Source: Candidatus Zixiibacteriota bacterium (GTDB lineage Bacteria; Desulfobacterota; Binatia; UBA9968). Taken from it: 64,000 bases of DNA. A program made the position numbers and the translations under genes. Positions 1-54,256 of this stretch are shown one piece after another. The notes below the pieces were generated by a model. The model saw nothing but the letters and a program-made list of their open reading frames with translations, did not search any database and had not been told where the DNA came from. Positions within the stretch are counted from its first letter, which is position 1, and each line of letters starts with the position of its first letter. The stretch lies in the NCBI GenBank assembly GCA_035574315.1, contig DATLYW010000031.1, forward strand, positions 68,574 through 132,573. Reading direction: 5' to 3'.

Positions 1-426
1 CCGCGAGCTCCGTTGCCCCGCAGAAGGGCGGCGCAACCGCACCGAGCCCAGCTTCCCGACGGCCGCTTTCGCCGGGAGGTTTTCCGCTGCCCTCATTGGG
101 GTTTGCCCCCGGCTGAGGGACCAGCGGAATCAACAGGAGCAAGCCCGCGAAGACGGCGCTTTGCTGCGCGCTTTCACCGGTCGGGAAAACGGCTCCGCTT
201 TTATCTGCGCCGCTCGGAACCCCCGTTACGTGATCGATGAGGACCATGCCGGCACGCCGGGAGAGCAAGAGGGGTGCCAGGCACTGACCCGCCGCCCCGT
301 TTCATCGGCGGAACGCGGCGATTCTTTAGTTTTTCTTTGCGACAACCGCGAGGTGGCAGTCGAAGTCGCATGCCACGAAGACTCCCATGCGACGGAGAAA
401 ATTCCCGGAGGGGGAAAGGGTTGCAT

Positions 427-6869: not shown

Positions 6870-6882
<13 letters not shown>
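6454..6882 (-). CDS. flgB: Flagellar basal-body rod protein FlgB; internal ATG of the longer ORF
   Basis: FlgB motif [18 protein letters not shown] and C-terminal [10 protein letters not shown]. Start MAGLRLFS chosen because the upstream part of the ORF overlaps the response-regulator gene. Confidence 0.8.
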
Positions 6883-8232
<1,350 letters not shown>

Positions 8233-8258
<26 letters not shown>

Positions 8259-9492
8259 CGCTTCGCGTCTCCTCGGCCGCAGGCAGGCAGACGTTGAACT
8301 GGCTGCCGCGTCCGGGCGTCGACAGAACTTCGATCGAGCCGTGGTGCGCGTGGACGATCTTGTGCGTCAGCGCCAGGCCAAGCCCGGTCCCGTTCTTTTT
8401 CGTGGTGAAGAACGGGTCGAAGATCCGCTCCCGGTTCTCCGGTGGAATGCCGCCGCCTTCGTCGATGACCTTGATCTCGACGGCCCGGTGGATCCGCCCG
8501 TTCATCGTGGCGAAAGGCGCCATTTCCGCTTTGAGTTGCACCCGCCCGCCCGCGGGCATCGCTTCCTTGGCGTTGACCACGAGGTTGAGCAGCGCCTGAA
8601 CCAGCAAACCGCGGTCGCCCCAGATCGGCGGCAGGCCGGGCTGAATGGCGAACGCGAGCGACCACGGCGGATCATTGAACAGCGGTACGCATTCCACGAG
8701 CAGGTCTTTCATCAGCAAAGGCACCGGCAGGAGATCGGGGGAGATCGACGGCTCCGCGGCGAAGCACAGCAGGCGCGAGAGCGTGGCGTGCAGCCGGCGC
8801 GCGGCCGCGAGGATCTCCTCGGCCGCCCGCCGCGGGTCCTCGACCGCATTTTCCTTGAGCAGCGATGCGTAGAGCTCGATCCCGCCGAGGGGATTTCGCA
8901 CCTGGTGCGCGAGCTCCGACGCCATCAGGCCTAGCGAAGCCAGCCGGCGCGTCCGCGCGGCCTCCGCTTCGAGGCGCTTCAGCGTGGTGGTGTCCTGGAA
9001 AATCACGACGTAGTCGCTGCGGGAGCCTCCCGCCGCCACCTCCGAGACCACGAAGTGGAGCGGCCTCACGATCCCGTCGGGTCCCTGAATCATCTTCTCG
9101 CATTCCAGAGGGAGAAAGCTCCTGTCGCCGCGCCGGAGCCTGGCGGCCAGTGTTTTTCCCAGCAGCTGCCCGGCGCGCTCCGCGTCGATTTCCCCCGCCA
9201 GCTCGTTCAAGCGCCGATTGGCGAACGTCGGCTGCAGATCGCGACCGAGGATGAGGACCCCGGCGTTGAGGCTTTCGAGCACCGAGAGGAGATACGCCCG
9301 GGCTTCTTCCCGTTCCCGCAGGCTCTTTTCGAGCTCGCGGTGCTGGCTTTCGAGCTCGCGCGTCAGGTGCTGAGCGCGCTCCTCGAGCCTGCGGTATTCC
9401 CGAATCAACTCCAGGCTGTTCTGATTGAACCAGCCGATGAGATGCTGGAGCGACTCGACCTCGATCTCCGGTTCGCTGACCGCAATAGTCAT
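8233..9492 (-). CDS. Cytoplasmic PAS sensor histidine kinase, FlrB/FleS-like
   Basis: H-box [15 protein letters not shown]1/G2 boxes ([23 protein letters not shown]), no TM segment. ATG at 9492 preceded by GGAGG. Confidence 0.8.
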
Positions 9493-9589
9493 TCCTTGCC
9501 TCCGTTCCCGCGCGGCGGACGCGTCGGCTTCTGCCCCGAGCAAGCTCCGTGCCACGGTTTTCACCGAGGGCACGAGAGTTACTCGGCTC

Positions 9590-10705
9590 TCAGGCGCATC
9601 CTCGCGTCTGCCCGTGAGCCGCGGCCACGGGCGGTGTCAAAGAAAAGTACCGCTCCGTCAGGATCCCGACGCCGCCGCCCGCGGGCGCCAGGCGCGGCTG
9701 CAGCATGCCCTTCTTGCGCAGGCGCTCGATCAACGTGGTGCGATTCAAACGGAGCAGCTCGGCGGCGGCGGTCTTGTTGCCGCGGCTGCGCTCGAGCGCC
9801 TGACGAATGAAGCCGTTTTCGATACTTTCGAGGACGCCGTCGAGGTCCACGCCCTCGTCGGGAAGCGATACCTCGGCGGCCGCCGCGCTCCGCCGCGCCG
9901 CCGGCTGGAGCACGTAGTCGGGCAGCTCGCCCACCCGGATCACCCCGTCCTCGTTCAGGACCACGAGCCGCTCGATGAGATTCTCCAGCTCGCGCACGTT
10001 TCCCGCCCATTCGTAGCTTTCGAGGGCCTGCATCGCCGCGGGATCGATCTCGAGAGGCCCTTTGCCCTTGCGCCGCCCGTGAAGCGAAAGGAAATGGCGG
10101 ACGAGAAGCGGGATGTCGCCCCTGCGCTCGCGCAGCGGCGGAAGCTCCAGCGGAAGCACGTTCAGACGATAGAAGAGATCCTCGCGAAACTTCCCTTCAC
10201 GAACCGCCGCCCGCAGGTCCCGGTTGGTTGCCGCGACGACCCGGACGTCAACCTGCACCGGATGGTCGCTTCCGAGCGGCTCGAACCGTCGCTCCTGCAG
10301 CACGCGCAGCAACTTCACCTGCAGCTTCGGGCTCATCTCGCCGATCTCGTCGAGGAACAAAGTCCCCCTGTGGGCGAGCTGGAAGCGGCCTTGCCGGGCG
10401 TGAATCGCGCCGGTGAACGCGCCGCGCACGTGGCCGAACAGCTCGCTTTCGAGCAGCTCCTCGGGAATGGCCCCGCAGTTGACCGGAACGAACGAGCTGT
10501 CGCGTCGATGGCTGAACTGGTGGATTGCACGGGCGGCAAGCTCCTTGCCGGTCCCGCTTTCACCGGTGATCAGGACCGTGGCGTCGCTTTGCGCCATCTT
10601 TCTGACGAGCTCCTGGATCCGACGCATGGCAAAGCTCTCCCCGACCATCGCCGCAAACGCTTCGCTGCCCCTTTCCTGCGCCGCTCCGAGAACCCGATTG
10701 TCCAT
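9590..10705 (-). CDS. Sigma-54 enhancer-binding protein lacking a receiver/sensor domain (AAA+ plus HTH only)
   Basis: Walker [23 protein letters not shown]-terminal HTH. Only ~15 aa precede the AAA+ domain. ATG at 10705 with GGGAGG SD; the annotated M at 10720 is a TTG. Confidence 0.8.
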   Translation of the reverse strand: MDNRVLGAAQERGSEAFAAMVGESFAMRRIQELVRKMAQSDATVLITGESGTGKELAARAIHQFSHRRDSSFVPVNCGAIPEELLESELFGHVRGAFTGAIHARQGRFQLAHRGTLFLDEIGEMSPKLQVKLLRVLQERRFEPLGSDHPVQVDVRVVAATNRDLRAAVREGKFREDLFYRLNVLPLELPPLRERRGDIPLLVRHFLSLHGRRKGKGPLEIDPAAMQALESYEWAGNVRELENLIERLVVLNEDGVIRVGELPDYVLQPAARRSAAAAEVSLPDEGVDLDGVLESIENGFIRQALERSRGNKTAAAELLRLNRTTLIERLRKKGMLQPRLAPAGGGVGILTERYFSLTPPVAAAHGQTRGCA

Positions 10706-11028
10706 TCGACCTCCCGTCAAAGCCTTGTCGCGTCAGAAAAACGTTGGCCTTGCCGCCGAGCAAAACAGAGGCCAGCAGGAACGAAGCCGCCGCCGCCGCG
10801 CCTAAGTTGCCGACATTTTCGCTGAAAGCTTCGCCCCGCGGCGTGCCGCAACGCCGATCGTGCGGTGGCAAAAATTCGACGCTTACCCGGGCGGCGTCGA
10901 GAAATTGTCGCCGGAGCGCGGCACGCAACAAAGCCTACGGAATAGGCCGCGGCCGCTGCGCCGGCGCGAAAAAAGCGCGGGCCGGGCGGCTGCTTCGCGG
11001 CAGGATCAGGGGCGGGCGGCGGGAGGGA

Positions 11029-11745
11029 TCACTCCTCGCCGTTGACCTTTTCGAGATATTGTCTCATCGCCTTGCGGCGAACGCGAATCGTTCTTTTTTC
11101 CACCTTGAGAATCCCTTTTGCGCGAAGGTCGCGCAGGCTGCGGGAAAGCGTTTCCGGGGCGGTCGAAACGGCCTGGGCGAGCTCCTTGTTGGAAAGCGGG
11201 ATCTCCACGACCTCTTCCTCCGAGCCGGCGCGGTCCAACAAGTTCACGAGATGCTCGAGCAACAGCGCCACCCGTTGCTCGACCGGCAGCCTTGCCATCC
11301 CGACGCGCCGGTAGAGGCGAAACAGATTCTCCGAGAAATGGCGCGCGAGCTGGAGAGCGAGCGCGGGATGGCGCTCGCCGAGCAGCCGGAGCTGACGCCA
11401 GCCCATCCGTCCGATCTCGACCTGTCCCCCGGTGGTGACCGCGGCACAGGGATGGCTCGCCGCGGCGCCGTCACTGACGCCGCTGATGATGCTGCAGGGG
11501 ACCGCTAGGTCCACGATCGCTTCCTCCCCTCCAGGCACAACCGTCGTCAATTTCACGACGCCGCGGCAAATGAGATAGACTCCGGTGACCGGCTCGCCCT
11601 GATGGAAGATGAACTTTCCCCTGCCGGCCACCGAGTAGCGGGCGAGCCCATCCGAAAATTCCTTGCAGGCTTTTTCCCCCACTCCCTTCAGGAACCCCTC
11701 CTCCCGGTGCGGGCAGTCGAGGCAGGTTTTCTGCATGCCGGACAT
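11029..11745 (-). CDS. Crp/Fnr-family transcriptional regulator, FNR-like (N-terminal Cys cluster; E--SR recognition helix)
   Basis: cNMP-binding fold plus C-terminal HTH containing ETLSRSLRDL (FNR-type E..SR). N-terminal C-x2-C...C residues at positions 8, 11 and 27. Confidence 0.8.
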   Translation of the reverse strand: MSGMQKTCLDCPHREEGFLKGVGEKACKEFSDGLARYSVAGRGKFIFHQGEPVTGVYLICRGVVKLTTVVPGGEEAIVDLAVPCSIISGVSDGAAASHPCAAVTTGGQVEIGRMGWRQLRLLGERHPALALQLARHFSENLFRLYRRVGMARLPVEQRVALLLEHLVNLLDRAGSEEEVVEIPLSNKELAQAVSTAPETLSRSLRDLRAKGILKVEKRTIRVRRKAMRQYLEKVNGEE

Positions 11746-11789
11746 TGTCGCGCCAATAAATTAAATAGCCTACTTTATAGTGAAAAGTC

Positions 11790-11803
11790 TTGACGTAAAT
11801 CAA
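11790..11803. promoter_or_regulatory. FNR/CRP-type palindrome TTGAC-GTAA-ATCAA
   Basis: Read directly. Matches the FNR consensus TTGAT-N4-ATCAA at 8/10 bases, i.e. at every position outside the T5/A10 pair. Sits in the AT-rich divergent region between the fnr-like gene and the sigma-54 activator gene. Confidence 0.55.
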
Positions 11804-11811
11804 TGGTAATT

Positions 11812-11825
11812 TTGACTCGGATCAA
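11812..11825. promoter_or_regulatory. Second FNR/CRP-type palindrome TTGAC-TCGG-ATCAA, 22 bp centre-to-centre from the first
   Basis: Read directly. Two helical turns from the first box. Confidence 0.55.
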
Positions 11826-11955
11826 TGCAGGAGTTTGGAGACAGTTGTATGGTGGAAGAAAAACAACTCCCTCGATTTCGCCAACGAGGGCTCAGCAAGT
11901 CAGGAATTCGGCCTCGACGAAGCTTGGCTGACGCATAACCGGCTTCACCGCTCAA

Positions 11956-12960
11956 ATGGCACCGACTCACCCCGTTTCGATCATCGGCGAGCATCCGCTC
12001 ATGGTAAAGATCAAGGCTCTGGTCGACCGAGTTGCGGCTACGGACGCAACAGTGCTCGTAACCGGAGAAAGCGGGACCGGGAAAGAGATCGTCGCCCGCG
12101 CGCTCCATGCCTCCAGCGCCCGCAATCACGGGCCGTTCGTTCCCGTAAACTGTGCCGCGATCCCGCACGACCTGCTCGAAAGCGAGCTGTTCGGCCACGT
12201 GCGCGGCGCGTTCACCGGCGCGCTCGGCGCCCGCGCCGGCATGTTCCAGCTGGCCGACGGCGGCACGCTTTTCCTCGACGAGGTCGGGGAAATGCCGCTC
12301 GCGCTTCAGGCCAAGCTCCTCCGGGTTCTCCAGGAGCGTGAGGTCCGCCCGATCGGCGCCGACCAGAGCGTCCCGGTCGACGTCCGCGTGATCGCGGCGA
12401 CGAACAAGGACCTGGTGCGCGAAGTCGAAAAAGGGACCTTCCGCGAGGATCTCTTTTACCGCCTCCAGGTGATTCCGATTCACCTGCCGCCGCTGCGGGC
12501 CCGCCGCTCGGACATTCCGCTGATGATCGATTTCTTCCTCGAGCGGGCGAACCGCCGGCACAACAGCTCGGTTCGCATTGCGCCCGAGGTGGGCATTCAT
12601 CTATGGGAGTACGACTGGCCGGGAAACGTGCGCGAGCTGGAAAACGTGATCGAGCGGATGGTGCTCCTGTGCGAGGGGGGGCGGATCGAGATGCAGGACC
12701 TTCCTCCCAACATTTACAACTTCGTCTCCGACAAGAAGATTCCGCAGCCGACCCTCAACGGCAAAGAGCTGGACCTGCGGACCGCGCTCAAGCAGTTCGA
12801 GTACCGGCTCATCGACGAAGCCCTGCGCCTCACCGACGGGAACAAAGCCATGGCCGCGCGCATGCTCAAGGTCAAGCGAACCACGCTGCTCGCCAAACTG
12901 CGAAACCGAGACTTGAGGAGGGACGAGGTTGAGAACAAGCGACTTCCCCTTGCCAGCTAG
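11956..12960 (+). CDS. Sigma-54 enhancer-binding protein, AAA+ plus HTH only (no receiver or sensor)
   Basis: Starts directly in the AAA+ domain. Walker [15 protein letters not shown], arginine finger region, C-terminal HTH ([10 protein letters not shown]). Confidence 0.85.
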
Positions 12961-13399
12961 CCGGTCCTCCGGGTCGAGGATCCTGGTGGTCGACGACAAC
13001 AAGGACCTGGTGGAGTTTCTCCGTCGCCTGCTCTCACACCACGGATTCGACGTGCGCTGCGCGTTCAGCGGCGCCGAATGCCTGGAAGCCGTACGGCGCG
13101 AGCCCGTCGACCTGATCGTTCTCGACGTGATGATGCCGAAGACCGACGGCCTCCAGGTGTGTGCCGAGCTCAAGCGCACCGCGCCTTCGATTCCCGTGAT
13201 GCTCCTTACCGCGAGGGACGACCTTGCCACCCGAGCCGCCGCCATGTCGCTCGGAGCGAGCGAGTTCGTCGCCAAGCCGATCAACGTTGCGGATTTCCTC
13301 GCGCGCGTGGGAACCCAACTGGAGATGCGCGGCTGGCAGAAGACCATCGACGCCGCTTTTGCCAGAACGAAAGGAGACGACACGCCCGCGGGGAAATGA
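12929..13399 (+). CDS. Stand-alone CheY-like receiver domain protein (TTG start inferred; alternative GTG at 12986)
   Basis: ILVVDDN...LIVLDVMMP...LLTARDD...FVAKP: all phospho-acceptor pocket residues present. Overlaps the stop of the upstream activator gene by ~30 nt. GGAGG lies 8 nt upstream of the TTG. Confidence 0.7.
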
Positions 13400-13571
13400 A
13401 GCCACGCCCGAGCCGGAAGGCCGCCTCGTCCCCGCAAGCGCTCGGCGGAGCCCCAAAAGACCCTTTTCCTCGTCTGCCTGTGCCGTCCCCGGATGGCAAA
13501 AAACGGCGCGAGGGTTTGCCCGCGGGCGGGCGAGCTTCGCGTTAAAATTCCCTGCTTATCACCGGTTTTCT

Positions 13572-13588
13572 TTGGCACCATCTTTGCT
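13572..13588 (+). promoter_or_regulatory. Sigma-54 (-24/-12) promoter TTGGCAC-CATCT-TTGCT
   Basis: Exact TGGCAC-N5-TTGC with GG-N10-GC spacing. Lies 75 bp upstream of the 67-aa ORF and 170 bp downstream of the activator/REC pair. Confidence 0.6.
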
Positions 13589-13664
13589 GCCTTCATAGGC
13601 TTAGCACTAATGAGATGCGTGCCGCGGGAATTGTCCGAGTACCGTTTGGCAGGCAGAGAAAAAA

Positions 13665-13868
13665 ATGAACCCGCAGAAAATCAGGCTCCTCGAAGAGCAA
13701 TACCGGCGGGCTGCCAGGGAGCTTTACGAGCACGAGGGAATGCTCGAGATCGACGACCAGGCCGCGGTCACGCTGCCCGACGGCGAGGGCAGCTACGGCG
13801 CTTACGTGCAGGCCTGGGTATGGGTCGGCAGCGAGGAGGCAAAGCGGCACCGCCCGACGGGTTCGTAG
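13665..13868 (+). CDS. Small hypothetical protein (67 aa), likely sigma-54 dependent
   Basis: High GC3 codon usage typical of the window; ATG preceded by AGAGAAAAAA; no recognisable domain. Confidence 0.45.
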   Translation: MNPQKIRLLEEQYRRAARELYEHEGMLEIDDQAAVTLPDGEGSYGAYVQAWVWVGSEEAKRHRPTGS

Positions 13869-13960: not shown

Positions 13961-14485
13961 TCAGATTTCGGCCCGGCGGCTGTGCATGGCGAGCGCCATG
14001 TCGTGGACCACCGAGACGTCGAATGAGTCCGTGGTGGTGGCTGAATTGGTACGGTAGCGAACGGAGATCGTGGGCCCCAGCCACGAGATCGTGAAGCTTC
14101 GAGCCTGCTTTTCCTCCAGATAACTCCCGAGCGCGCGAAGCATTTGCGAGACGGCGCCCTGGGCGGCGTGCGGAGTGCCGCGTCGCGAACGCCCCTCGGA
14201 ATCGAGCCGTTCGATATCCGTGGGGGTGTAGCGCAGCTCTTGCATGGACCGGGGCAACCCGTGCTCGAGAACCGGCGCAGGCGTTTCGCCCCAAATTTCC
14301 TCGACGAGCCTCGCGAGGAATTCTTTCGACGGCGACCTCTCCGATCCCGGATCGCGAGGCTGATAACGCACGACGTACTCGTTGCCGCGCTGCTTGAGCT
14401 CGAAGCTCTCGGTGCCGCTCAACGCCTCCAGGGCCTGACCCAGGGCTCTGAGCGCTCTGGAATGTTTAAGATTCGACGCAGCCAT
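13961..14485 (-). CDS. Hypothetical protein (174 aa) with internal tandem duplication
   Basis: Good codon usage. Two repeats of helix LRALG..LE followed by SF....G...V.RY (residues ~10-50 and ~110-150). No known domain recognised. Confidence 0.5.
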   Translation of the reverse strand: MAASNLKHSRALRALGQALEALSGTESFELKQRGNEYVVRYQPRDPGSERSPSKEFLARLVEEIWGETPAPVLEHGLPRSMQELRYTPTDIERLDSEGRSRRGTPHAAQGAVSQMLRALGSYLEEKQARSFTISWLGPTISVRYRTNSATTTDSFDVSVVHDMALAMHSRRAEI

Positions 14486-16679: not shown

Positions 16680-17072
16680 ATGGGATTCTATGCTGACGTC
16701 TGGCTGCGCCAGGCCCGTGACGGCGTGGCGGCGGAGCAATCCGACTTCGAGAAAATCGCCGAGGCGGTCGAAAAAGCGATCAAGGCGGCGCTGTTGGAAA
16801 ACCACGGAAGCATCCCGAAGAAACACGACCACGACAAGCTGGTGACGCTCTGCCAGTCGACCGGCGTGTGGGACGTCTTACCGCCGGCGCTCAAGAACCT
16901 TGTCCAGGAGGTCGAATCGTACAAGCTCTCGGCGCAGCAAGGATCGACCGCACCCGTTTCCGCCCCGCAGGACCTCGCCAGGTATTTCTCGATCGCCCGC
17001 CGGCTGATCGACTACATGGAATACCACGTCATCGGCAACGACTCGGTTCTGAAAAGGCTTACGGTCGGCTGA
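16680..17072 (+). CDS. HEPN domain protein (solitary)
   Basis: All-alpha ~130 aa. N-terminal AxxxFxKIAEAVEKAIKAAL and KHDHDKL region, plus C-terminal R-x(6)-H (RRLIDYMEYH), typical of HEPN. Confidence 0.55.
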   Translation: MGFYADVWLRQARDGVAAEQSDFEKIAEAVEKAIKAALLENHGSIPKKHDHDKLVTLCQSTGVWDVLPPALKNLVQEVESYKLSAQQGSTAPVSAPQDLARYFSIARRLIDYMEYHVIGNDSVLKRLTVG

Positions 17073-17247: not shown

Positions 17248-18111
17248 TCAGTTGACCGGCAGAAGCGACTCGACCGTGGCGATCTCGAGGGCGTCGTGGT
17301 TGCCGCTTTTCATCCGGGTCATGCGACTTTCCGCCTCGTTCATCAGCTCTGCCACGCTCCGCGGAGCCTTGGCACAGGCGATGGCGCTGATGAAAAAAGT
17401 GACGGGCTGAGCGTATCGGCGCCGCTCTTCCCGCAGAGCGCCCTGCATCTTTTCGAGAACGAAGCGAGCCCCTTCCGGTTCGGTGTTCGGCAGCAGCACC
17501 GCGAACGCCGTGCCCCCGATTCGCCCCACCAGGTCGGCCCGCGGAGCGTTCTTTCGTATCGTGTGGGCGATCGCGCAGAGCATCTGATCGCCGGTGACGT
17601 AGCCGAAACGGTGATTGATCCATTTGAAGCCTTCCACGTCGATGTAGGCGAGCGCGATGGGCTCGAGCCCGAACGCCCGGTCCATTTCGCGCGCCGCAAG
17701 CTCGTAAAAGGCGCGGCCGTTCGGCAACCCCGTGAGAAAATCGCGACTGGCGAGCTCGGAGATCTGGTCAAGCTTGGACCTGAGCTGCGACAGAGCGACC
17801 GCGACGGTCAGCAGAATCCCGGCGCGCATCAGAAAATTCCAAATCTCGATCAAGGAGGAAGAGTAGGAACGCTCCCCGACCTTGCCGACCACGGTCCAGA
17901 CGACGGCGCAGGCCAGCGCCATGCCGATTGCCGCCCGGCTCTCCACGAACCAGCTCACCAGCGCGATCGGGAGGAGATAAAAAAAATGGATGTGCGGCTC
18001 CCGGCCGGTCATGAAATCGAGCGCCCCCACCGTGGCCATCAGAAGGATTCCAAGCGCGAGGTTCGTGGCCTTGGTTCGACGCTCCAGAAATCTGAGAACT
18101 GTTTCCATCAT
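17248..18111 (-). CDS. Membrane-anchored GGDEF-domain protein with degenerate active site (GGTAF)
   Basis: 4-5 N-terminal TM helices. DFLTGLPNGRAF and DVEGFKWINHRFGYVTGDQ motifs present, but RIGGTAF replaces RxGG(D/E)EF. Confidence 0.8.
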   Translation of the reverse strand: MMETVLRFLERRTKATNLALGILLMATVGALDFMTGREPHIHFFYLLPIALVSWFVESRAAIGMALACAVVWTVVGKVGERSYSSSLIEIWNFLMRAGILLTVAVALSQLRSKLDQISELASRDFLTGLPNGRAFYELAAREMDRAFGLEPIALAYIDVEGFKWINHRFGYVTGDQMLCAIAHTIRKNAPRADLVGRIGGTAFAVLLPNTEPEGARFVLEKMQGALREERRRYAQPVTFFISAIACAKAPRSVAELMNEAESRMTRMKSGNHDALEIATVESLLPVN

Positions 18112-23524: not shown

Positions 23525-23908
23525 TTACGGGCAAGGTCCTCCTGTAATCTGTCCCGTGTTGCTCTCGAAAGTCCACGTAGTGGTACCGCAATTGTTGTGG
23601 GAAGCGGACAGCAAGAAGGTATTCGTACCGACGGTGGCGCCGATATTGACGTCAGTGCTCTTGTTAAAGCCTGATGGGTTACTACTGCTAAGGGTGCCGC
23701 TTCGGTACGTGAAGTTCTGGGTGAAATACGCTTCCTCGGCCGTCGCGGCGTTCCTCAGGTCCGCCTTGACCTGCGCTTCGTAGCCGCGCTTGCGATACTC
23801 CGAGAACTGCGGAATCGCGATCGCCGCGAGAATTCCGATAATTGCAACGACCACCAGGAGTTCGATCAACGTGAACCCCGACTGACTCTGTAATGGTGTT
23901 TTCTTCAT
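23525..23908 (-). CDS. pilA: Type IVa pilin PilA (prepilin with class III leader)
   Basis: MKKTPLQSQSG/FTLIELLVVVAIIGILAAIAIPQF cleavage/methylation motif; C-terminal Cys pair (C...C) forming a disulfide loop; GGGAG SD. Confidence 0.9.
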   Translation of the reverse strand: MKKTPLQSQSGFTLIELLVVVAIIGILAAIAIPQFSEYRKRGYEAQVKADLRNAATAEEAYFTQNFTYRSGTLSSSNPSGFNKSTDVNIGATVGTNTFLLSASHNNCGTTTWTFESNTGQITGGPCP

Positions 23909-24271
23909 ATAGTTGAGCTCCCTTTCCTGTGCGTGGTAGATTCTTTGGTGCCCGACCCCAAGCAACTCGTCGATCTTCGATCCCCCACCAAACCCAACGT
24001 CGATGACTTCATGCTCTTCTCACCTCCTTCTCAACCCGTGGGCTATGATGGGTTCGAAGTTGCCAGGAGGCTGCAGCAAAACGGAGGCCATGGCTTCTCC
24101 GTCCATCGCTCCACGGCGACGCGGGGGAACCGAAGCCTCCTTGTATTCCTTTCACTTCCAGTGGGTTACGACTCGGAAAATGGGTCTTTCTCGGCACCGG
24201 TGCATGCGGGAGCCCTAGCGAGGTATGGACATAATTCCGTTTTATTGAACCCGACAAGGTGACAAAAATTG

Positions 24272-26314
24272 TTACTGCGGCTCTTCGGTTTCGCCGTGAC
24301 CGTGCCCCTTGGTATTGAGCATGCCGTATTTCTCCAGGCGGTGGCGGAGGGATCGATAATTGATGCCCAGAATCTCGGCAGCGCGCTTCTGCACCCCGTT
24401 GGCCCGTTTGAGGGCGCCCAAAAGGATGCATTTTTCGTGGGTTTCGAGCTCAGCGTCGAGAGAAAGCCCCTTGCTGAAGAAAAGATCGGCGCCGCCGGGC
24501 GCGGTTTTCTCGAAAAGCTCCGCTTCTTCGGCAATCGGGGTTCCCTTGACGTGCGCGGGAAGGTCGTCCTCCGTGAGCGCCGCAGAGGTCGCGACCGCGA
24601 CCGCATGCTCCATGATGTTCTCCAGCTCGCGCACGTTTCCCGGGTAGGAATAATTCACCAGATGCATCAGCGCGCCGCTCGAGATCTCCTCGATCTTCTT
24701 CTGCTGCAGCTCGGTGAACTTGCGGAAGAAATAGTGCACGAGCGCCGGGATGTCCTCCTTGCGGTTTCGAAGCGGAGGCATCGTGATCTGCACGACGTTC
24801 AGCCGATAGAAAAGATCCTCGCGAAAACGCCCCTCCTCCATCTCCCTTCTCAGGTCCTTGTTGGTCGCCGAGATCACGCGGACGTCGACCTTGACCGGCT
24901 TGTTACCCCCCACCGGCGTGAAGGTCCTGTCCTGGAGCACACGCAGTAGCTTGACCTGGAGATGAAGCGGCAGCTCGCCCACCTCGTCGAGAAAAATCGT
25001 TCCCTGATCTGCCTGCTTGAACAGACCGGGATGATCGGCAACCGCCCCGGTGAACGCCCCTCGGACATGGCCGAAGAGCTCGCTCTCGATCAGATTCTCG
25101 GGAATCGCGCCGCAGTTGACGGCGACGAACGGCTTGTTCTTCCGCGGCCCGTTGAGGTGGATGGCGCGCGCGACGAGCTCCTTGCCGGTGCCGCTTTCCC
25201 CGATGATCAGGACGTTAGTGCTGCTCGAAGCGACCTTTTGCACCAGCTGGTTGATCTTTTCGATTCCGGGGCTCCTGCCGATCACTCCTTCGAAGTGGAA
25301 CTCGCCCGGTCCCCGGGCCTCCTGCTCCTTCGCCTTGCGCAGCTCCTCTTCGAGCCGGAGCTTCTCCTCCATTTCTTTCTGTTTGGTGATGTCGTCGAAG
25401 ATCGAAAGATAGCCGATCAACTGCTGCCCGGCGTCGCTGAGGGGAGCGAGCGTCAGGCGCAGCTGCTTCTGCGCCCCCTGCGCCGTCGCGAACGAGATCT
25501 CGTCGGCGACCACGCGTGGCCCGCTCTTCGATCCGTCGAAGCGATACGAGAGTCCGGGGAAAATCTCGTCGAGTCGCTTTCCACGGACCGTTTCCTCGGC
25601 CAGTCCGGTCAGGTTCTGCGCTTGCACGTTGAAATAGTTGACGCGACCGCCAACGTCCGTGATGGCGATTCCGCTGCCGACTCCCTGGAGCAGCGCCTGC
25701 TTCAACGCGTCGAGCTCCTGATAATCGAGCTGCTTCGCCTTGAGCGCCTTTTCCGTCTCGGCGAGCTTCTTCGCCAAAAACCCGCCGAGGCCCGCGATCG
25801 CGAAGAAACTTCCCGCGTTGAAGACGTGAGGCATCACCGCGGCCCACGAGGCGGGCACGCCTGCGCCGCGGTGCAACGTGTAGGCCCAGCTGAGCAGCGC
25901 CACGTAACAGAGGCTCGAGAAGATCGCCGTGAAAAACGCCCCGCGGTAAAAGAGCAGGATGGCGCCGTTCATGACCGCCAGGTTGTAGAGGAACGGAAAC
26001 GGGCTCGCGAAATCCCCCGTGATCCAGATGATGCCGGTGATGAGCAGGACGTCGAAATCGACCTGCAGGTGGGCGAAGAAGCGCAGATCCTTGATCCGCG
26101 GCAGGGCGAGGGCCGAGATCACGGAAATCGCGTACGCGAGGATCAGCGGAACCGAGAGCGTGTAGAGAAACCGGAGATCGCTTTGCTGGTTGAAGAAATG
26201 GAACAGCGCCGTGGCGCCGAGAAAAAAAGAGACGATGACCACTCGGAGAAAGAGCAGCCATCGCATCTTTTCGGTCAAATCCTTGCGCTCGTCAATCACT
26301 TTGCGACCGCCCAC
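24272..26314 (-). CDS. Membrane-bound sigma-54 activator: PilS-like 6-TM domain + PAS + AAA+ (GAFTGA) + HTH. Start is GTG at 26314 or ATG at 26266
   Basis: Six N-terminal TM helices, PAS region, Walker [16 protein letters not shown]-terminal HTH. No HisKA/HATPase and no receiver. Confidence 0.8.
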   Translation of the reverse strand: MGGRKVIDERKDLTEKMRWLLFLRVVIVSFFLGATALFHFFNQQSDLRFLYTLSVPLILAYAISVISALALPRIKDLRFFAHLQVDFDVLLITGIIWITGDFASPFPFLYNLAVMNGAILLFYRGAFFTAIFSSLCYVALLSWAYTLHRGAGVPASWAAVMPHVFNAGSFFAIAGLGGFLAKKLAETEKALKAKQLDYQELDALKQALLQGVGSGIAITDVGGRVNYFNVQAQNLTGLAEETVRGKRLDEIFPGLSYRFDGSKSGPRVVADEISFATAQGAQKQLRLTLAPLSDAGQQLIGYLSIFDDITKQKEMEEKLRLEEELRKAKEQEARGPGEFHFEGVIGRSPGIEKINQLVQKVASSSTNVLIIGESGTGKELVARAIHLNGPRKNKPFVAVNCGAIPENLIESELFGHVRGAFTGAVADHPGLFKQADQGTIFLDEVGELPLHLQVKLLRVLQDRTFTPVGGNKPVKVDVRVISATNKDLRREMEEGRFREDLFYRLNVVQITMPPLRNRKEDIPALVHYFFRKFTELQQKKIEEISSGALMHLVNYSYPGNVRELENIMEHAVAVATSAALTEDDLPAHVKGTPIAEEAELFEKTAPGGADLFFSKGLSLDAELETHEKCILLGALKRANGVQKRAAEILGINYRSLRHRLEKYGMLNTKGHGHGETEEPQ

Positions 26315-29418: not shown

Positions 29419-29767
29419 CAAAACTTTCACAAGGACGTTTTACTAGGAACTTTGTTGGTAGGTAGACACCCGTCAAAAGTGGGCCGAGACCTGAAAGTGC
29501 GGGCGCCGCGGCATAAAAGCTCCCGCTTCGGCCCGGGCGGTCGGATAACCCGCTCTCGGGGAGGACGCGGTCGGGGCCCACGCGGCACCGGCCCATTGAC
29601 CGCGCCGGAAGGTCTCGGCCGGGAGGCACCAGGATACGATGCACACATCGTTACGAGCTCACCCGTAATTGGCCGCGCGCTCTGGAAACGAGGCTTCCGG
29701 GCAGGGCGCTGGAGGAAAACAAGCCCGGCCTCCGACGTCGTCGCCTTCGGGCTGCCGCCGTAAGGGG

Positions 29768-41916: not shown

Positions 41917-42342
41917 ATGGACGGTCGACAGCGTTACCGCATCATTCCGCGGCAGTCCGAGCTGGCCGTTCGCATTGTCGGAGAGTCTCAGTCCGAGCTG
42001 TTCGCCAATGCTGGCTTCGCCCTCTTCGACCTCATGACCGAACTCGACAAGGTCGAAGTCAAGGAGCGGGTTCAGCTCGAAGTGGATGGGGCAGACCTCG
42101 ACGATCTGATGGTCAACTGGACCCGTGAGCTGCTTTACCTCTATCAAGGGAGCGGCTATCTTTTAAGGGAGTTTCTCGTGCGCGAGGCGTCCGAGACCCG
42201 GGTGCGCGCGGAAGTCTGCGGGGAAAAGATCGATCCCGACCGACACGAGATCAAAAGGGAGATCGTCGGTGTGGCCCTGCACCAGAGCCGCCTGCAAAAG
42301 ACCGGAAACCAGTGGACGGCCCAGCTCGTCTTCGAGATCTGA
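41917..42342 (+). CDS. Archease family protein
   Basis: Internal ATG of the longer ORF. N-terminal YRIIP..LAVRIVGESQSELFANAGFALFDLMT and C-terminal HEIKREIVGVALH match the archease family. Confidence 0.6.
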   Translation: MDGRQRYRIIPRQSELAVRIVGESQSELFANAGFALFDLMTELDKVEVKERVQLEVDGADLDDLMVNWTRELLYLYQGSGYLLREFLVREASETRVRAEVCGEKIDPDRHEIKREIVGVALHQSRLQKTGNQWTAQLVFEI

Positions 42343-45000: not shown

Positions 45001-45579
45001 ATGCGAGAGACCATCCGACGCGCGTTCGAAGAAAGCGTGGAAGTCAAGCGGGCGTTTTTGCGCGACCACTGCGACGCGCTCATCGCCGCGGCCGAGGCCG
45101 TGGTCGATTGCCTCCGCCGGGGCAACAAGCTCTTGATCTTCGGCAACGGCGGCAGCGCCGCCGACGCGCAGCACATCGCGGCCGAATTCGTCAATCGCTA
45201 CCGCGCCGAGCGACCGCCGCTCGCGGCCATCGCCCTGACCACCGACAGCTCCGCCATAACCAGCATCGCCAACGATTATGAGTACGCCGAAGTTTTCGCC
45301 AAGCAGCTCCGGGCGCTCGCCAAGCCCGGTGACGTAGCCTGGGCGATCTCCACCAGCGGCAACGCTGCCAACGTGCTCCGCGCCGTCGACACCTGCCGCC
45401 GCCTGGGGATCACCACGATCGGCATGACCGGCGGCGACGGCGGCAAGCTGCGCGGCAACGTCGACCACCTCCTGTGCGTCTCGGCGACAAAGACCACGGC
45501 TCGGATCCAGGAAACTCACATCCTCATCGCCCACGTCCTTTGCGAGCTGGTGGACGAGCAACTCTTTCCCTCGAGCTAA
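45001..45579 (+). CDS. gmhA: Sedoheptulose-7-phosphate isomerase GmhA (SIS domain)
   Basis: SIS motif LIFGNGGSAADAQH and downstream conserved residues. Confidence 0.8.
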   Translation: MRETIRRAFEESVEVKRAFLRDHCDALIAAAEAVVDCLRRGNKLLIFGNGGSAADAQHIAAEFVNRYRAERPPLAAIALTTDSSAITSIANDYEYAEVFAKQLRALAKPGDVAWAISTSGNAANVLRAVDTCRRLGITTIGMTGGDGGKLRGNVDHLLCVSATKTTARIQETHILIAHVLCELVDEQLFPSS

Positions 45580-51579: not shown

Positions 51580-52920
51580 GTGTACGTCATGGAACTATGG
51601 GAAAAAGCCCTTGTCCATCTGAGAGAAAAGCTAGGGAAACAGAATTTCGAGACATGGATCAAACCGGTGCGGGCGGAGTCGATTAACGATGACACGCTTG
51701 TCCTCGAAGTGCCCAACAAGTTCTTTCGCGACTGGCTGTCAGAGCACTACCTGTCGCAGATCGCTGCCGTCCTTTCGGCGCTATCGCACAAGCAGATCCG
51801 CGTCTCGCTCGCCGTCAATAACCGCGTGCAACCGAAGGAAGCGCCGGCACGCGCACAAAAAAAAGAAGAGCCGGAGCCGCCGAGGGGGCAGCGATTCAAT
51901 AACTTAATCCCGAAGTACACCTTCGAGAATTTCGTTATCGGCGCGAGCAACCAGTTCGCTCACGCCGCCTCGATGGCCGTGGCCAACCAGCCGGGAGACC
52001 ACTACAACCCTCTGTTCATCTACGGCGGGGTCGGTCTTGGTAAGACGCACCTGGCCAACGCGATCGGGCACCGTGCGGTCGCTCACCGGCCGGGTCTCAA
52101 GGTGCTTTACCTGAGCTCGGAATCTTTCATGAACGAGCTGATCGCGTCGCTGCGCCGCGACCGCATGGACGAATTCAAGACGAAATTCCGCAACATCGAT
52201 ATCCTGATCCTCGACGACGTCCAGTTCATCGCCGGCAAGGAAAGGACGCAGGAGGAGTTCTTTCACACATTCAACTCGCTCTACGAGACGCACAAACAGA
52301 TCGTGATCACGTCCGACAAGTTCCCCAAGGAGATCCCAGGGCTGGAGGACCGCCTGCGCAACCGCTTCGAGTGGGGGCTGATCGCAGACATCCAGCCGCC
52401 CGACATGGAAACCCGGGTGGCGATCCTGCAGAAAAAAGCGGAGAGCGAGGGCGTTCAGCTGCCGCACGAAGTCGCCATTTTCCTGGCTTCCAACATCGAC
52501 TCGAATGTCCGCGAACTCGAGGGGTCGTTAACCCGCCTCGGCGCCTTCGCCTCCCTCACGAAGTCGGTGATCACCGTTGAACTGGCCAAGGAGGTCCTGC
52601 ACAACACCCTCAAGAGCTCCCACAAGGAGATCACGATCGAGAGCATCCAGAAAACGATCTGCGAGTACTACAACATCAAGCTCGGCGATCTCAAGGCCAA
52701 GAGGCGCACCAAGAACATCGCGATTCCCAGGCAGGTCGCGATGTACCTATGCCGCAAGTATACGGAAACCTCGTTCCCGGCGATCGGCGACAAGTTCGGC
52801 GGCCGCGACCACTCCACGGTCATCCATGCCTCCAAAGCCATCGAGAAACGGCTCAAGGAGGATCCCTACATGCAGAGCACAATTGAAAAGCTCGAGCGGA
52901 CGCTGAATGTCCGCAAGTAG
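51580..52920 (+). CDS. dnaA: Chromosomal replication initiator DnaA
   Basis: AAA+ Walker A GGVGLGKTHL, sensor motifs, C-terminal DNA-binding domain (...VAMYLCRKYT...DHSTVIHA). Confidence 0.97.
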   Translation: MYVMELWEKALVHLREKLGKQNFETWIKPVRAESINDDTLVLEVPNKFFRDWLSEHYLSQIAAVLSALSHKQIRVSLAVNNRVQPKEAPARAQKKEEPEPPRGQRFNNLIPKYTFENFVIGASNQFAHAASMAVANQPGDHYNPLFIYGGVGLGKTHLANAIGHRAVAHRPGLKVLYLSSESFMNELIASLRRDRMDEFKTKFRNIDILILDDVQFIAGKERTQEEFFHTFNSLYETHKQIVITSDKFPKEIPGLEDRLRNRFEWGLIADIQPPDMETRVAILQKKAESEGVQLPHEVAIFLASNIDSNVRELEGSLTRLGAFASLTKSVITVELAKEVLHNTLKSSHKEITIESIQKTICEYYNIKLGDLKAKRRTKNIAIPRQVAMYLCRKYTETSFPAIGDKFGGRDHSTVIHASKAIEKRLKEDPYMQSTIEKLERTLNVRK

Positions 52921-53077
52921 CTTGTGCACATCCTGTGCGCAAACCGTGGCCGCAAACGGGGATAACCACCTGCCTTTGCTTCCCGCGCCGGGCCAGACCC
53001 AAAAAGCGGGCGCTGCGGTCCGGCACTAGGAACAAGCCAAGTCGGCGCCAGCGCTAGATTCTCAGCGCTTGTTGCTC

Positions 53078-53125
53078 TTGTCCACAGTGCTATTGCTACT
53101 GCGGATTTAATTCATATATACAAGG
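53078..53125. promoter_or_regulatory. dnaA-dnaN intergenic region: near-consensus DnaA box TTGTCCACA (53078-53086) plus AT-rich GGATTTAATTCATATATACAAGG
   Basis: Read directly; one mismatch to TTATCCACA. Confidence 0.4.
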
Positions 53126-53149
53126 AAGGATAAGGGTCGGGAGGTTCCT

Positions 53150-54256
53150 ATGGAATTAAACGCTACGCGAGGCGATCTCCTCGCCGCGCTCTACTGGACT
53201 CAGAGCATCGTCGAGCGGCGCAATACCATGCCGATCCTGGCCAACGTGCTGATCGACGCGCAAAAAGACGGTGTTCGCATCACGGCGACTGATCTCGAGG
53301 TTGGAGTCCGGGCGACGGTGGAGGGGCAGATAGGGAAAGAAGGGACGGTGACAGTCAACGCGAAAAAGCTCTACGAGATCGTTCGCGAGCTTCCGGGCGA
53401 GCAGGTGCGGGTGAAGAAGCTGGAAAACGAGTGGGTCGAGATCAGAAGCGGAAAGGCGGTTTTCAAGATCGTGGGCATGGAGGCACGGGAGTATCCGCAG
53501 TTTCCTAGGTTCAGCACGGAAGGGCTCGTGTCGGCGGCAGCGAGCGTCCTGCGAGGTATGATCGAGCGGACGATTTTTTCGGTGTCTATGGATGAAACCC
53601 GGTACAGCCTGAACGGCGTCTACATGGAGCAGGGGGATGGAAGTAAAGTGCGGATGGTGGCAACGGACGGCCACCGTCTGGCTTTCGAGGAACAGTCCCT
53701 TGGAAATTTCGGCTTGGCTAAGGGAGTGATCCTGCCGAGGAAGGGGGTGGCTGAGGTCAAAAAGCTCCTTGATTCCGGTGAGGACGGCACGGTCTCGATC
53801 GGTTTCCGGGAAAATATGGCCCTGATCGTCAGGGACAAGGTGGAGCTTTTCATGCGGTTGATCGACGGCGATTTTCCTGAATACAGCAAGGTAATTCCGA
53901 AGGGAAACCCGAACGTCGCCAAGCTGGACCACGACGAATTCCTGCAGGCGCTGCGGCGTGTGTCGATCCTGTCGAGCGAGCGTTACAAGGGCGTGAAGAT
54001 GGAATTCAGGGACCGGCGCCTGCTGATCTCGACGAGCAACCCGGACCTCGGGGAAGCGGTTGAGGAAGCCGAGGTGGAATACACCGGGAAGCCCGTAACG
54101 ATCGGCTTCAACGCGCGATACCTGATCGATGTGCTGAACGTTCTCGAGGCGGACTGCGAGGTCAAGATGGAGCTGAAGGACGAGGTGAGCCCGAGCGTGA
54201 TCCGGAGGTGGGGGGACGAGACCTACCTCTATGTTCTGATGCCGATGAGGCTCTAG
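53150..54256 (+). CDS. dnaN: DNA polymerase III beta sliding clamp DnaN
   Basis: Three-domain clamp, 368 aa, follows dnaA. Confidence 0.95.
   Translation: MELNATRGDLLAALYWTQSIVERRNTMPILANVLIDAQKDGVRITATDLEVGVRATVEGQIGKEGTVTVNAKKLYEIVRELPGEQVRVKKLENEWVEIRSGKAVFKIVGMEAREYPQFPRFSTEGLVSAAASVLRGMIERTIFSVSMDETRYSLNGVYMEQGDGSKVRMVATDGHRLAFEEQSLGNFGLAKGVILPRKGVAEVKKLLDSGEDGTVSIGFRENMALIVRDKVELFMRLIDGDFPEYSKVIPKGNPNVAKLDHDEFLQALRRVSILSSERYKGVKMEFRDRRLLISTSNPDLGEAVEEAEVEYTGKPVTIGFNARYLIDVLNVLEADCEVKMELKDEVSPSVIRRWGDETYLYVLMPMRL

Follow-up and report, generated by a model that had tools for sequence, protein, structure and literature searches.

Divergent receiver-less sigma-54 activators with a co-inherited receiver beside a flagellar gene cluster: a candidate top tier of a sigma-54 cascade

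Our study concerns a stretch of 64,000 nucleotides (hereafter the window) from an uncultured bacterium deposited as Candidatus Zixiibacteriota (assembly GCA_035574315.1, contig DATLYW010000031.1, positions 68,574 to 132,573). We focus on a gene pair that encodes a sigma-54 activator devoid of a receiver domain (bEBP2) and a stand-alone receiver (REC), and that lies divergently from a flagellar gene cluster headed by a second receiver-less activator (bEBP1). A first-pass annotation, made from the sequence alone, had singled out five elements between positions 11029 and 13868, namely an FNR-like regulator, the activator, the receiver, a sigma-54 promoter and an open reading frame (ORF) of 67 codons, and had read them as a self-contained circuit. 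All five are present and exceed what is expected by chance; the flagellar cluster, the nearby kinase and bEBP1 had been overlooked. The core of the locus comprises:

11956 to 12960, plus strand: bEBP2, a sigma-54 activator without receiver (AAA+, lid and HTH_8 domains in Pfam; type Ic; 334 amino acids)
12929 to 13399, plus strand: REC, a single-domain receiver (Pfam), predicted to be phosphorylatable and translationally coupled to bEBP2 (156 amino acids)
10866 to 10910: a 45-bp palindromic candidate enhancer, TGGCA-N5-TCGAC-N15-GTCGA-N5-TGTCG, upstream of the bEBP1 promoter
10759 to 10774, minus strand: the sigma-54 promoter of bEBP1 (TGGCCTctgttTTGCT), slightly degenerate relative to the consensus
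9590 to 10705, minus strand: bEBP1, a paralogous receiver-less sigma-54 activator (Pfam) at the head of the flagellar operon, the position of FleQ or LafK
8233 to 9573, minus strand: a FleS/FlrB-like histidine kinase (Pfam HisKA and HATPase_c)
6870 to 8258, minus strand: an NtrC-type response regulator with REC, AAA+ and helix-turn-helix (HTH) domains (Pfam), FleR/FlrC/FlbD-like, followed by flgBC-fliEFGHI

The activator-receiver pair, its paralogue and the flagellar cluster

The initial description of bEBP2 as an activator made only of AAA+ and HTH modules agrees with its Pfam domains (Sigma54_activat PF00158, 3.9e-73, at residues 9-176; AAA_lid_14; HTH_8 at 278-316). Only eight residues precede the AAA+ domain, Pfam finds no N-terminal domain, and the gene cannot be extended upstream in frame because the listed ORF already uses the farthest start. 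The Walker A, GAFTGA and Walker B motifs, read from the translation, are all intact and DEVGE is present. The orthologues at the six loci found through REC are likewise short (319-357 amino acids). By domain criteria, bEBP2 is thus classed as a group Ic enhancer-binding protein, the receiver-less type known from PspF, HrpRS and LafK (PMC3162934).

REC matches Response_reg (PF00072, 3.1e-30) and, as first annotated, overlaps the stop of the activator gene: it starts at a TTG placed 7 nt downstream of GGAGG, which gives a 32-nt overlap with the 3' end of bEBP2 and an operon-like coupling. The same overlap is present in two relatives (L001 and L088). The NCBI model of REC is shorter (137 amino acids) and with its start the overlap would vanish, but alignments of REC orthologues reach upstream of that start. 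We also considered that the two genes are fused by frameshifting; the peptide spanning the overlap is not conserved, hence there is no evidence for such a fusion. Residues D22, D23, D66, T94 and K116 are invariant across 12 orthologues, and REC, which keeps every phospho-acceptor residue, is predicted to be phosphorylation-competent.

The association of the two genes is remarkably strict. A scan with bEBP2, using one genome per species, returned 25 orthologous loci (L001-L025), with identities of 66-71% in L001-L005 and of 56-59% in L006-L025, which belong to Candidatus Binataceae; with five further loci (L087-L091) the orthologues span 56-72%. REC lies directly downstream in all 26 evaluable loci found through bEBP2 (23 scan loci where the contig continues and 3 more). 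Conversely, the six loci found through REC and located on contigs all place it right behind a receiver-less activator. Co-conservation in relatives had been named beforehand as a test of the arrangement, and it holds in 32 of 32 evaluable loci. More distant matches of bEBP2 are ordinary REC-AAA+-HTH proteins or resemble bEBP1.

Adjacency does not by itself imply contact. Single-domain receivers commonly act as phosphate sinks or connectors, and REC could be a co-expressed regulator of this kind, serving the FleS/FleR-like pair or another target without touching bEBP2. Its sequence is closer to OmpR- and PleD-type receivers than to NtrC-type ones, and the best 120 of its more than 1100 homologues all consist of a single PF00072 domain (137-185 amino acids), without any fusion to AAA+. 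Yet, the adjacency to bEBP2 is kept over 32 loci whose other neighbours vary, including loci with no kinase or flagellar genes nearby, and start-stop overlap with bEBP2 is frequent. We therefore regard a role of REC away from bEBP2 as quite unlikely.

In eight genomes, including that of the window, the pair is accompanied by bEBP1 (L001, L005, L087, L088, L089, L090 and the P0291 locus are the others). Its gene lies upstream of that of bEBP2 and on the other strand; the two are immediately divergent in seven of the eight genomes, and in L088 three genes separate them. The bEBP1 orthologues of L001, L087, L088 and L089 share 71-75% identity with bEBP1 and about 50% with bEBP2, while the downstream activators of the same loci are 66-72% identical to bEBP2; in L005, L090 and the P0291 locus the arrangement was matched by position and domain content. 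The two proteins of the window are 53% identical over their full length, and identity between the groups is about 50-53%. Given this difference between within- and between-group identities, bEBP1 and bEBP2 represent two conserved paralogue lineages. A neighbour-joining tree places the bEBP2 clade as sister to bEBP1 together with other receiver-less activators, two of which (L039 and L064) adjoin a histidine kinase and fliF.

The surroundings of bEBP1 speak to two statements of the first-pass annotation, that no kinase was identifiable and that the arrangement could be assigned to no characterised system. Neither held. Directly upstream of the pair, on the minus strand, Pfam identifies bEBP1, a histidine kinase, an NtrC-type response regulator, flgBC and fliEFGHI (with FlgC, FliE, FliF, FliG, FliH and FliI recognised), so that a kinase lies in the adjacent divergent operon only 1.5 kb away. 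The order is that of FleQ-FleS-FleR-fliEFGHI-like clusters, with bEBP1 in the position of FleQ and bEBP2 as its nearest paralogue next door. The long ORF of the kinase contains an exact sigma-54 promoter at 9539-9554 (minus strand), ahead of a GGAGG-ATG at 9492; its true start is therefore probably this ATG (M28), with the promoter then lying in the 97 nt between bEBP1 and the kinase gene. The best NCBIfam match of the response regulator is FlbD, under the cutoff. The P0291 locus repeats the left arm of the window (FliH, FliG, FliF, FliE, FlgC, FlgB, the response regulator, the kinase and bEBP1), and in L001 and L005 bEBP1 is followed by the kinase, the response regulator and FliF. Another exact sigma-54 promoter, at 264-279 (minus strand), lies just beyond the end of fliI and points out of the window; presumably it serves the next flagellar operon.

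Two observations on the related loci deserve mention. In L087, L089, L090 and the P0291 locus, 5-9 kb past REC, we repeatedly found an OmpA-domain protein, a REC-AAA+ regulator without HTH, a small protein (TPR or unknown) and a HAMP histidine kinase, joined in L087 and L090 by a small receiver; this set may be a further sigma-54 two-component unit tied to the same system. Also, the metagenome-assembled genome that contains the window is labelled 'candidate division Zixibacteria' at NCBI, and this label looks doubtful because the nearest related loci belong to Candidatus Binataceae/Binatia and to soil assemblies labelled 'delta proteobacterium'.

A sigma-54 promoter and a palindromic enhancer ahead of bEBP1

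Wherever the DNA was available, in six relatives as well as in the window, a sigma-54-type promoter precedes bEBP1. The sequences in the relatives are:

L001 and L005: bEBP1 promoter GGCACTGGCATTGCT
L087: bEBP1 promoter TGGCACCACGCTTGCG
L088: bEBP1 promoter TGGCACACGGCTTGCG
L089: bEBP1 promoter TGGCGCATGCTTTGCT
L090: bEBP1 promoter TGGCATCCGGTTTGCG

About 100 bp upstream of these promoters, the relatives carry a palindrome of the form (Y)GNCR-N5-TTAAC-N15-GTTAA-N5-YGNC(R). Its architecture and its N15 spacing are common to L001, L087, L088 and L089; the copy of L090 nearly matches and was missed by the search pattern. The palindrome of the window has the inner arms TCGAC/GTCGA where the relatives have TTAAC/GTTAA. 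To assess it independently, we built a position weight matrix (PWM) from five relatives only, with the window excluded, and scanned both strands of the 64 kb. The single best site was precisely 10866-10910, with 18.0 bits against a maximum of 14.4 in shuffled sequences. A weaker match (12.3 bits, within the shuffled range) lies at 11751-11795 on the minus strand, between the start codon of the FNR-like gene and the first FNR-type box; it may be what the insertion of that gene left behind, or a coincidental match in sequence rich in AT.

The promoters of the two activators differ in kind. In L087, L089, L090 and L091, bEBP2 is preceded by sigma-70 promoters (TTGCAA/TTGATA/TTGACA-17-TAAACT/TAAATT/TACACT); in the window none is detectable upstream of bEBP2. 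Since in the relatives bEBP1 has a sigma-54 promoter and bEBP2 a sigma-70 one, a hierarchy with bEBP2-REC on top is favoured.

The two activators might instead form an obligate hetero-oligomer, as do HrpR/HrpS or FleQ/FleT, with REC modulating a mixed ring rather than the first of two successive steps. The paralogues are indeed co-conserved side by side in eight genomes, both have their AAA+ and HTH modules complete, their recognition helices resemble each other, and there are precedents (PMC3105312, PMC7277832, PMC9542535). An obligate partnership fits poorly with the approximately 24 loci that have bEBP2-REC and no adjacent bEBP1, and the contrast between sigma-54 and sigma-70 promoters in the relatives fits a hierarchy. 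We thus see it as unlikely in its strict form. Oligomerization and hierarchy are not mutually exclusive, by analogy with FleQ/FleT, which does both.

Regulatory additions specific to this genome

The remaining elements of the region surround this conserved core:

11029 to 11745, minus strand: an FNR-like regulator of the Crp family (238 amino acids), genome-specific and inserted in the divergent intergenic region
11790 to 11803 and 11812 to 11825: two tandem FNR-type boxes (TTGACGTAAATCAA and TTGACTCGGATCAA), with centres 22 bp apart
13494 to 13527: weakly supported candidate enhancer pieces, TGGCAAAAA (13494 to 13502) and the palindrome GCCCGCGGGC (13518 to 13527)
13573 to 13588, plus strand: a consensus sigma-54 promoter (TGGCACcatctTTGCT), an exact TGGCAC-N5-TTGCW with GG and GC 10 bp apart
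13665 to 13868, plus strand: orf67, a small protein of a phage/mobile-element family (67 amino acids)

We found no Crp/Fnr gene, no FNR boxes, no sigma-54 promoter after REC and no orf67 in any of the related loci. All four are additions specific to this genome. The five-element synteny expected elsewhere therefore does not exist among the relatives, and what is conserved is bEBP2-REC, with bEBP1 in eight genomes, instead of a self-contained circuit. A different set of genes entered the same place in L088 (L088:2633-7653), where the region between bEBP1 and bEBP2 gained a 160-aa ORF, a 1190-aa REC-GAF-PAS hybrid sensor and a NarL-type regulator. This insertion parallels that of the FNR-like gene, and the divergent control region thus seems to attract extra regulators.

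The FNR-like protein belongs to the expected family (HTH_Crp_2, 3e-12; cNMP_binding, 1e-7; Pfam) and has no close relatives in the metagenome scan. We compared it with FNR of E. coli (b1334, NC_000913.3), with which it shares the fold. Its ETLSR aligns with ETISR, preserving the E--SR recognition helix, and its CxxC (C8 and C11) falls opposite C20 and C23. Its other cysteines (C27, C60, C84 and C100) sit elsewhere in the alignment. Its score against the NCBIfam model of Fnr (NF008365) is 35.9 bits, when the cutoff is 228, and all Crp/Fnr equivalogs are far under their cutoffs. Hence, of the regulator first described as having an N-terminal cysteine cluster, an FNR-type helix and a redox or cNMP input, the family and the DNA recognition stand, and the iron-sulphur or redox input is uncertain, because only two of the four cluster cysteines align. 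By sequence comparison, the regulator can be called FNR-like in its DNA recognition; in its cysteines and family score it falls short of FNR proper.

The two boxes announced in the divergent region are real outliers: they are the only perfect matches to TTGAY-N4-RTCAA in the 64 kb, against 0.12 expected, and are of the TTGAT-N4-ATCAA type recognised by FNR. The second one is centred 41.5 bp upstream of the transcription start inferred from a -10 element (TATGGT) at 11848-11853. The idea that the first box descends from the -10 region of the relatives was unsupported; the bEBP2 promoters were too divergent for a useful alignment across genomes. Sites with at most one mismatch number 10 in the window for 2.7 expected. 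Those with one mismatch at 29463-29476, 42134-42147 and 45133-45146 lie in or near intergenic regions, e.g., upstream of pilB, and may be further targets of the regulator.

The sigma-54 promoter downstream of REC was described accurately, as an exact consensus at 13573-13588. It lies 174 nt past the stop codon of REC and 77 nt ahead of the ATG of orf67, and the window contains three exact sites for 0.02 expected. Upstream of it, the word TGGCARAAA (TGGCAAAAA) occurs only once more in the window, as the outer arm of the bEBP1 enhancer. The palindrome GCCCGCGGGC occurs six times for 0.63 expected; one of these copies precedes the kinase promoter by about 125 nt. Being GC-rich, and lying in coding sequence in four of its six copies, the palindrome may be a product of codon bias. 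An enhancer common to the orf67 and bEBP1 promoters was considered and left as weak, since the 9-mer matches alone and the PWM does not. No RNA element was found around the promoter with Rfam.

As claimed at first, orf67 is a genuine gene: its GC contents by codon position (0.69/0.43/0.85) are like those of real genes of this genome. A word-indexed search retrieves only itself, but an exhaustive phmmer search gave 738 cluster representatives and a profile search over 2000 proteins, with a family motif, EG.LEIDD.A.VS..GAYVQAWVWV, that is present in the window copy. The output protein, initially unidentifiable, can thus be placed in a phage/mobile-element family, PHROG 6739 (5.6e-4 for orf67, 6e-10 for its relatives), whose function is not assigned. 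There is no counterpart in Pfam or among PDB sequences. The AF2 model (pLDDT 92.7; one long helix and short strands) has no significant match among PDB structures and matches two predicted phage proteins in BFVD. Searches gave no match in isolate phages and a single weak one in plasmids. Three homologues on long contigs neighbour genes for ParB, DUF2786/DUF7168, Fic/VbhA, reverse transcriptase or restriction enzymes, and none of the three has a sigma-54 promoter upstream. Altogether, orf67 looks like a long-resident, lineage-specific captured gene behind a genuine sigma-54 promoter.

These data bear on two other ways of reading the region. The one originally put forward holds that bEBP2 takes its inputs from the FNR-like protein and from the orphan receiver, and has the 67-aa protein as its dedicated output. 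The parts are contiguous, with a consensus promoter shortly after REC, and TGGCAAAAA is shared with the bEBP1 enhancer. Against this, none of the related bEBP2-REC loci has the FNR-like gene, the boxes, the promoter or orf67, homologues of orf67 live elsewhere among the genes listed above and lack the promoter, and no full enhancer precedes orf67. We find it very unlikely. Alternatively, the promoter and orf67 may form an independent unit fired by bEBP1 or by the FleR-like regulator, with orf67 as a phage gene domesticated in the flagellar regulon. The palindrome GCCCGCGGGC upstream of both the orf67 and the kinase promoters, the host-like codon bias and the absence of any compositional anomaly in the region would fit. 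That palindrome may be a by-product of codon usage, as said, and at this position orf67 is unique to this genome, hence without support from conservation, which leaves the independent unit doubtful.

Convergent with orf67 is a coding-like 174-aa ORF (13961-14485, minus strand; GC3, the GC content at third codon positions, 0.77) with no Pfam, NCBIfam or PHROG match. A few kb downstream lie a HEPN-domain protein (16680-17072, plus strand) and a GGDEF diguanylate cyclase (17248-18111, minus strand). Between pilB/pilC and a type IV pilin (23525-23965, minus strand) is a gene for a 680-aa protein (24272-26314, minus strand) with PilS-type six transmembrane segments, PAS, sigma-54 AAA+ and HTH_8 domains, and neither HisKA/HATPase nor receiver; by domain content it looks like a one-component 'PilS-PilR' fusion. 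The pilus cluster has no separate pilR and the pilin has a sigma-54 promoter (TGGCCTCCGTTTTGCT, 24075-24090, minus strand), so we asked if bEBP2-REC could be a split PilR; the fusion protein in that cluster rules this out. The bEBP1 and pilin promoters are identical at 15 of 16 positions, yet share no likeness outside the promoter itself. Finally, ORFs at 51580-54256 (plus strand) look like dnaA and dnaN, judging solely from their position and N-terminal sequence, and would put the chromosomal origin region in the window.

A putative cascade and its relation to known systems

Our results suggest, at about even confidence, that the region forms the uppermost tier of a sigma-54 cascade of several steps, which controls the flagellar gene cluster. 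What we observe in this model is gene content, conservation, promoters and the enhancer; the binding partners, the direction of control by the FNR-like regulator and the contact between REC and bEBP2 we infer. The conserved core would be the two divergent receiver-less activators and a phosphorylatable receiver co-translated with bEBP2. The entry point would be bEBP2-REC, placed in the window under the FNR-like regulator, which with its two boxes would control the pair and probably also its own gene. bEBP2 would bind the palindromic enhancer and fire the sigma-54 promoter of bEBP1. Afterwards, bEBP1 may maintain its own expression or assemble together with bEBP2 and, possibly with it, would activate the kinase/response regulator pair and the early flagellar genes (flgBC-fliEFGHI). 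Phosphorylated REC would act in trans on bEBP2, replacing the absent cis receiver and gating assembly of the ATPase; the adjacent FleS-like kinase is the obvious candidate for phosphate donor, by position. The consensus sigma-54 promoter would have captured orf67 as an extra output.

Several observations weigh against this model. Autoregulation of bEBP1 alone could explain the enhancer. In approximately 24 loci (L002-L004, the Binataceae loci and L091), bEBP2-REC is found without bEBP1, flagellar genes, the enhancer or a sigma-54 promoter nearby, and the pair must therefore have other targets; in L087, L089 and L090 the trio is kept and flagellar genes are not beside it. On the input side, no cysteine of the FNR-like protein aligns with C29 or C122 of FNR, and the sign of its effect could go either way: the geometry of the second box fits class II activation, but the regulator may also repress. 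On the output side, the PWM gives no match to the full 45-bp enhancer upstream of the orf67 promoter.

The closest parallel to the proposed cascade is the FleQ/FlrA-FleSR(FlrBC) system of Pseudomonas and Vibrio, where a sigma-54 activator also heads a cluster of kinase, NtrC-type regulator and fliEFGHI, and where the lower tiers are sigma-54-dependent. The top regulator there is sigma-70-dependent and under control of a Crp-family protein: fleQ is downregulated by the Crp homologue Vfr, according to Dasgupta 2002 as cited in PMC10146422. The difference is that here the head of the cluster, bEBP1, itself has a sigma-54 promoter and that a second activator with a receiver would stand above it, making three activators in series. 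Furthermore, the FleQ-type N-terminal domain is absent from both bEBP1 and bEBP2 (Pfam), which in lacking a receiver domain resemble LafK of lateral flagella (PMC3162934).

Other systems share single traits with this one. FleQ and FleT of the Fla1 flagellum of Cereibacter (Rhodobacter) sphaeroides are two sigma-54 activators of one flagellar system, one of which switches the other on before both act jointly, combining hierarchy and hetero-oligomer (PMC7277832). However, FleT has no DNA-binding domain and its gene is part of the fliE operon, whereas both activators of the window have HTH_8, are divergent, and one is coupled to a receiver. HrpR and HrpS, from the Pseudomonas syringae type III secretion system, are side-by-side receiver-less paralogues whose activity is set in trans, and not through a sensor domain in cis, by small proteins, HrpV and HrpG (PMC3105312, PMC4145663), the part that we propose for REC on bEBP2. 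They differ in being tandem and co-transcribed, in acting on a single promoter (hrpL), and in that the trans-acting regulator is not a two-component receiver. VnfA and AnfA are another pair of paralogous activators (PMC9542535). In NtrC, DctD and NtrC1 a receiver domain controls the assembly of the AAA+ ring, a control that REC, with all its phospho-acceptor residues, might exert too; here the receiver forms a protein of its own, its gene follows that of the AAA+-HTH protein instead of the domain being N-terminal, and no coiled-coil linker is possible.

A more tentative proposal is the following: REC may be a dedicated trans subunit of a receiver-less activator, i.e., a split NtrC with inverted order, and, together with the second paralogue, may form a conserved three-protein master switch that adds a sigma-54 tier above a FleQ-like regulator in an uncultured, Binatia-related soil lineage. 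Sigma-54 activators are usually switched by a sensor domain in cis or by partners such as PspA, HrpV, NifL and FleN. In the literature that we searched, we found no described case of a stand-alone receiver gene strictly co-inherited with a receiver-less activator, nor of a third activator tier above a regulator in the FleQ position.

If true, a receiver gene that is separate and strictly co-inherited would demonstrate that an AAA+ activator can take two-component input in trans, and three activators in cascade would make for an unusually deep hierarchy of flagellar control. These bacteria being uncultured, the value of the model is mainly that of a testable hypothesis for heterologous reconstitution. 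The locus also illustrates how a conserved regulatory core may be rewired, by insertion of an FNR-like gene here and of three sensor or regulator genes in L088, and by the placement of a phage-family gene behind a sigma-54 promoter.

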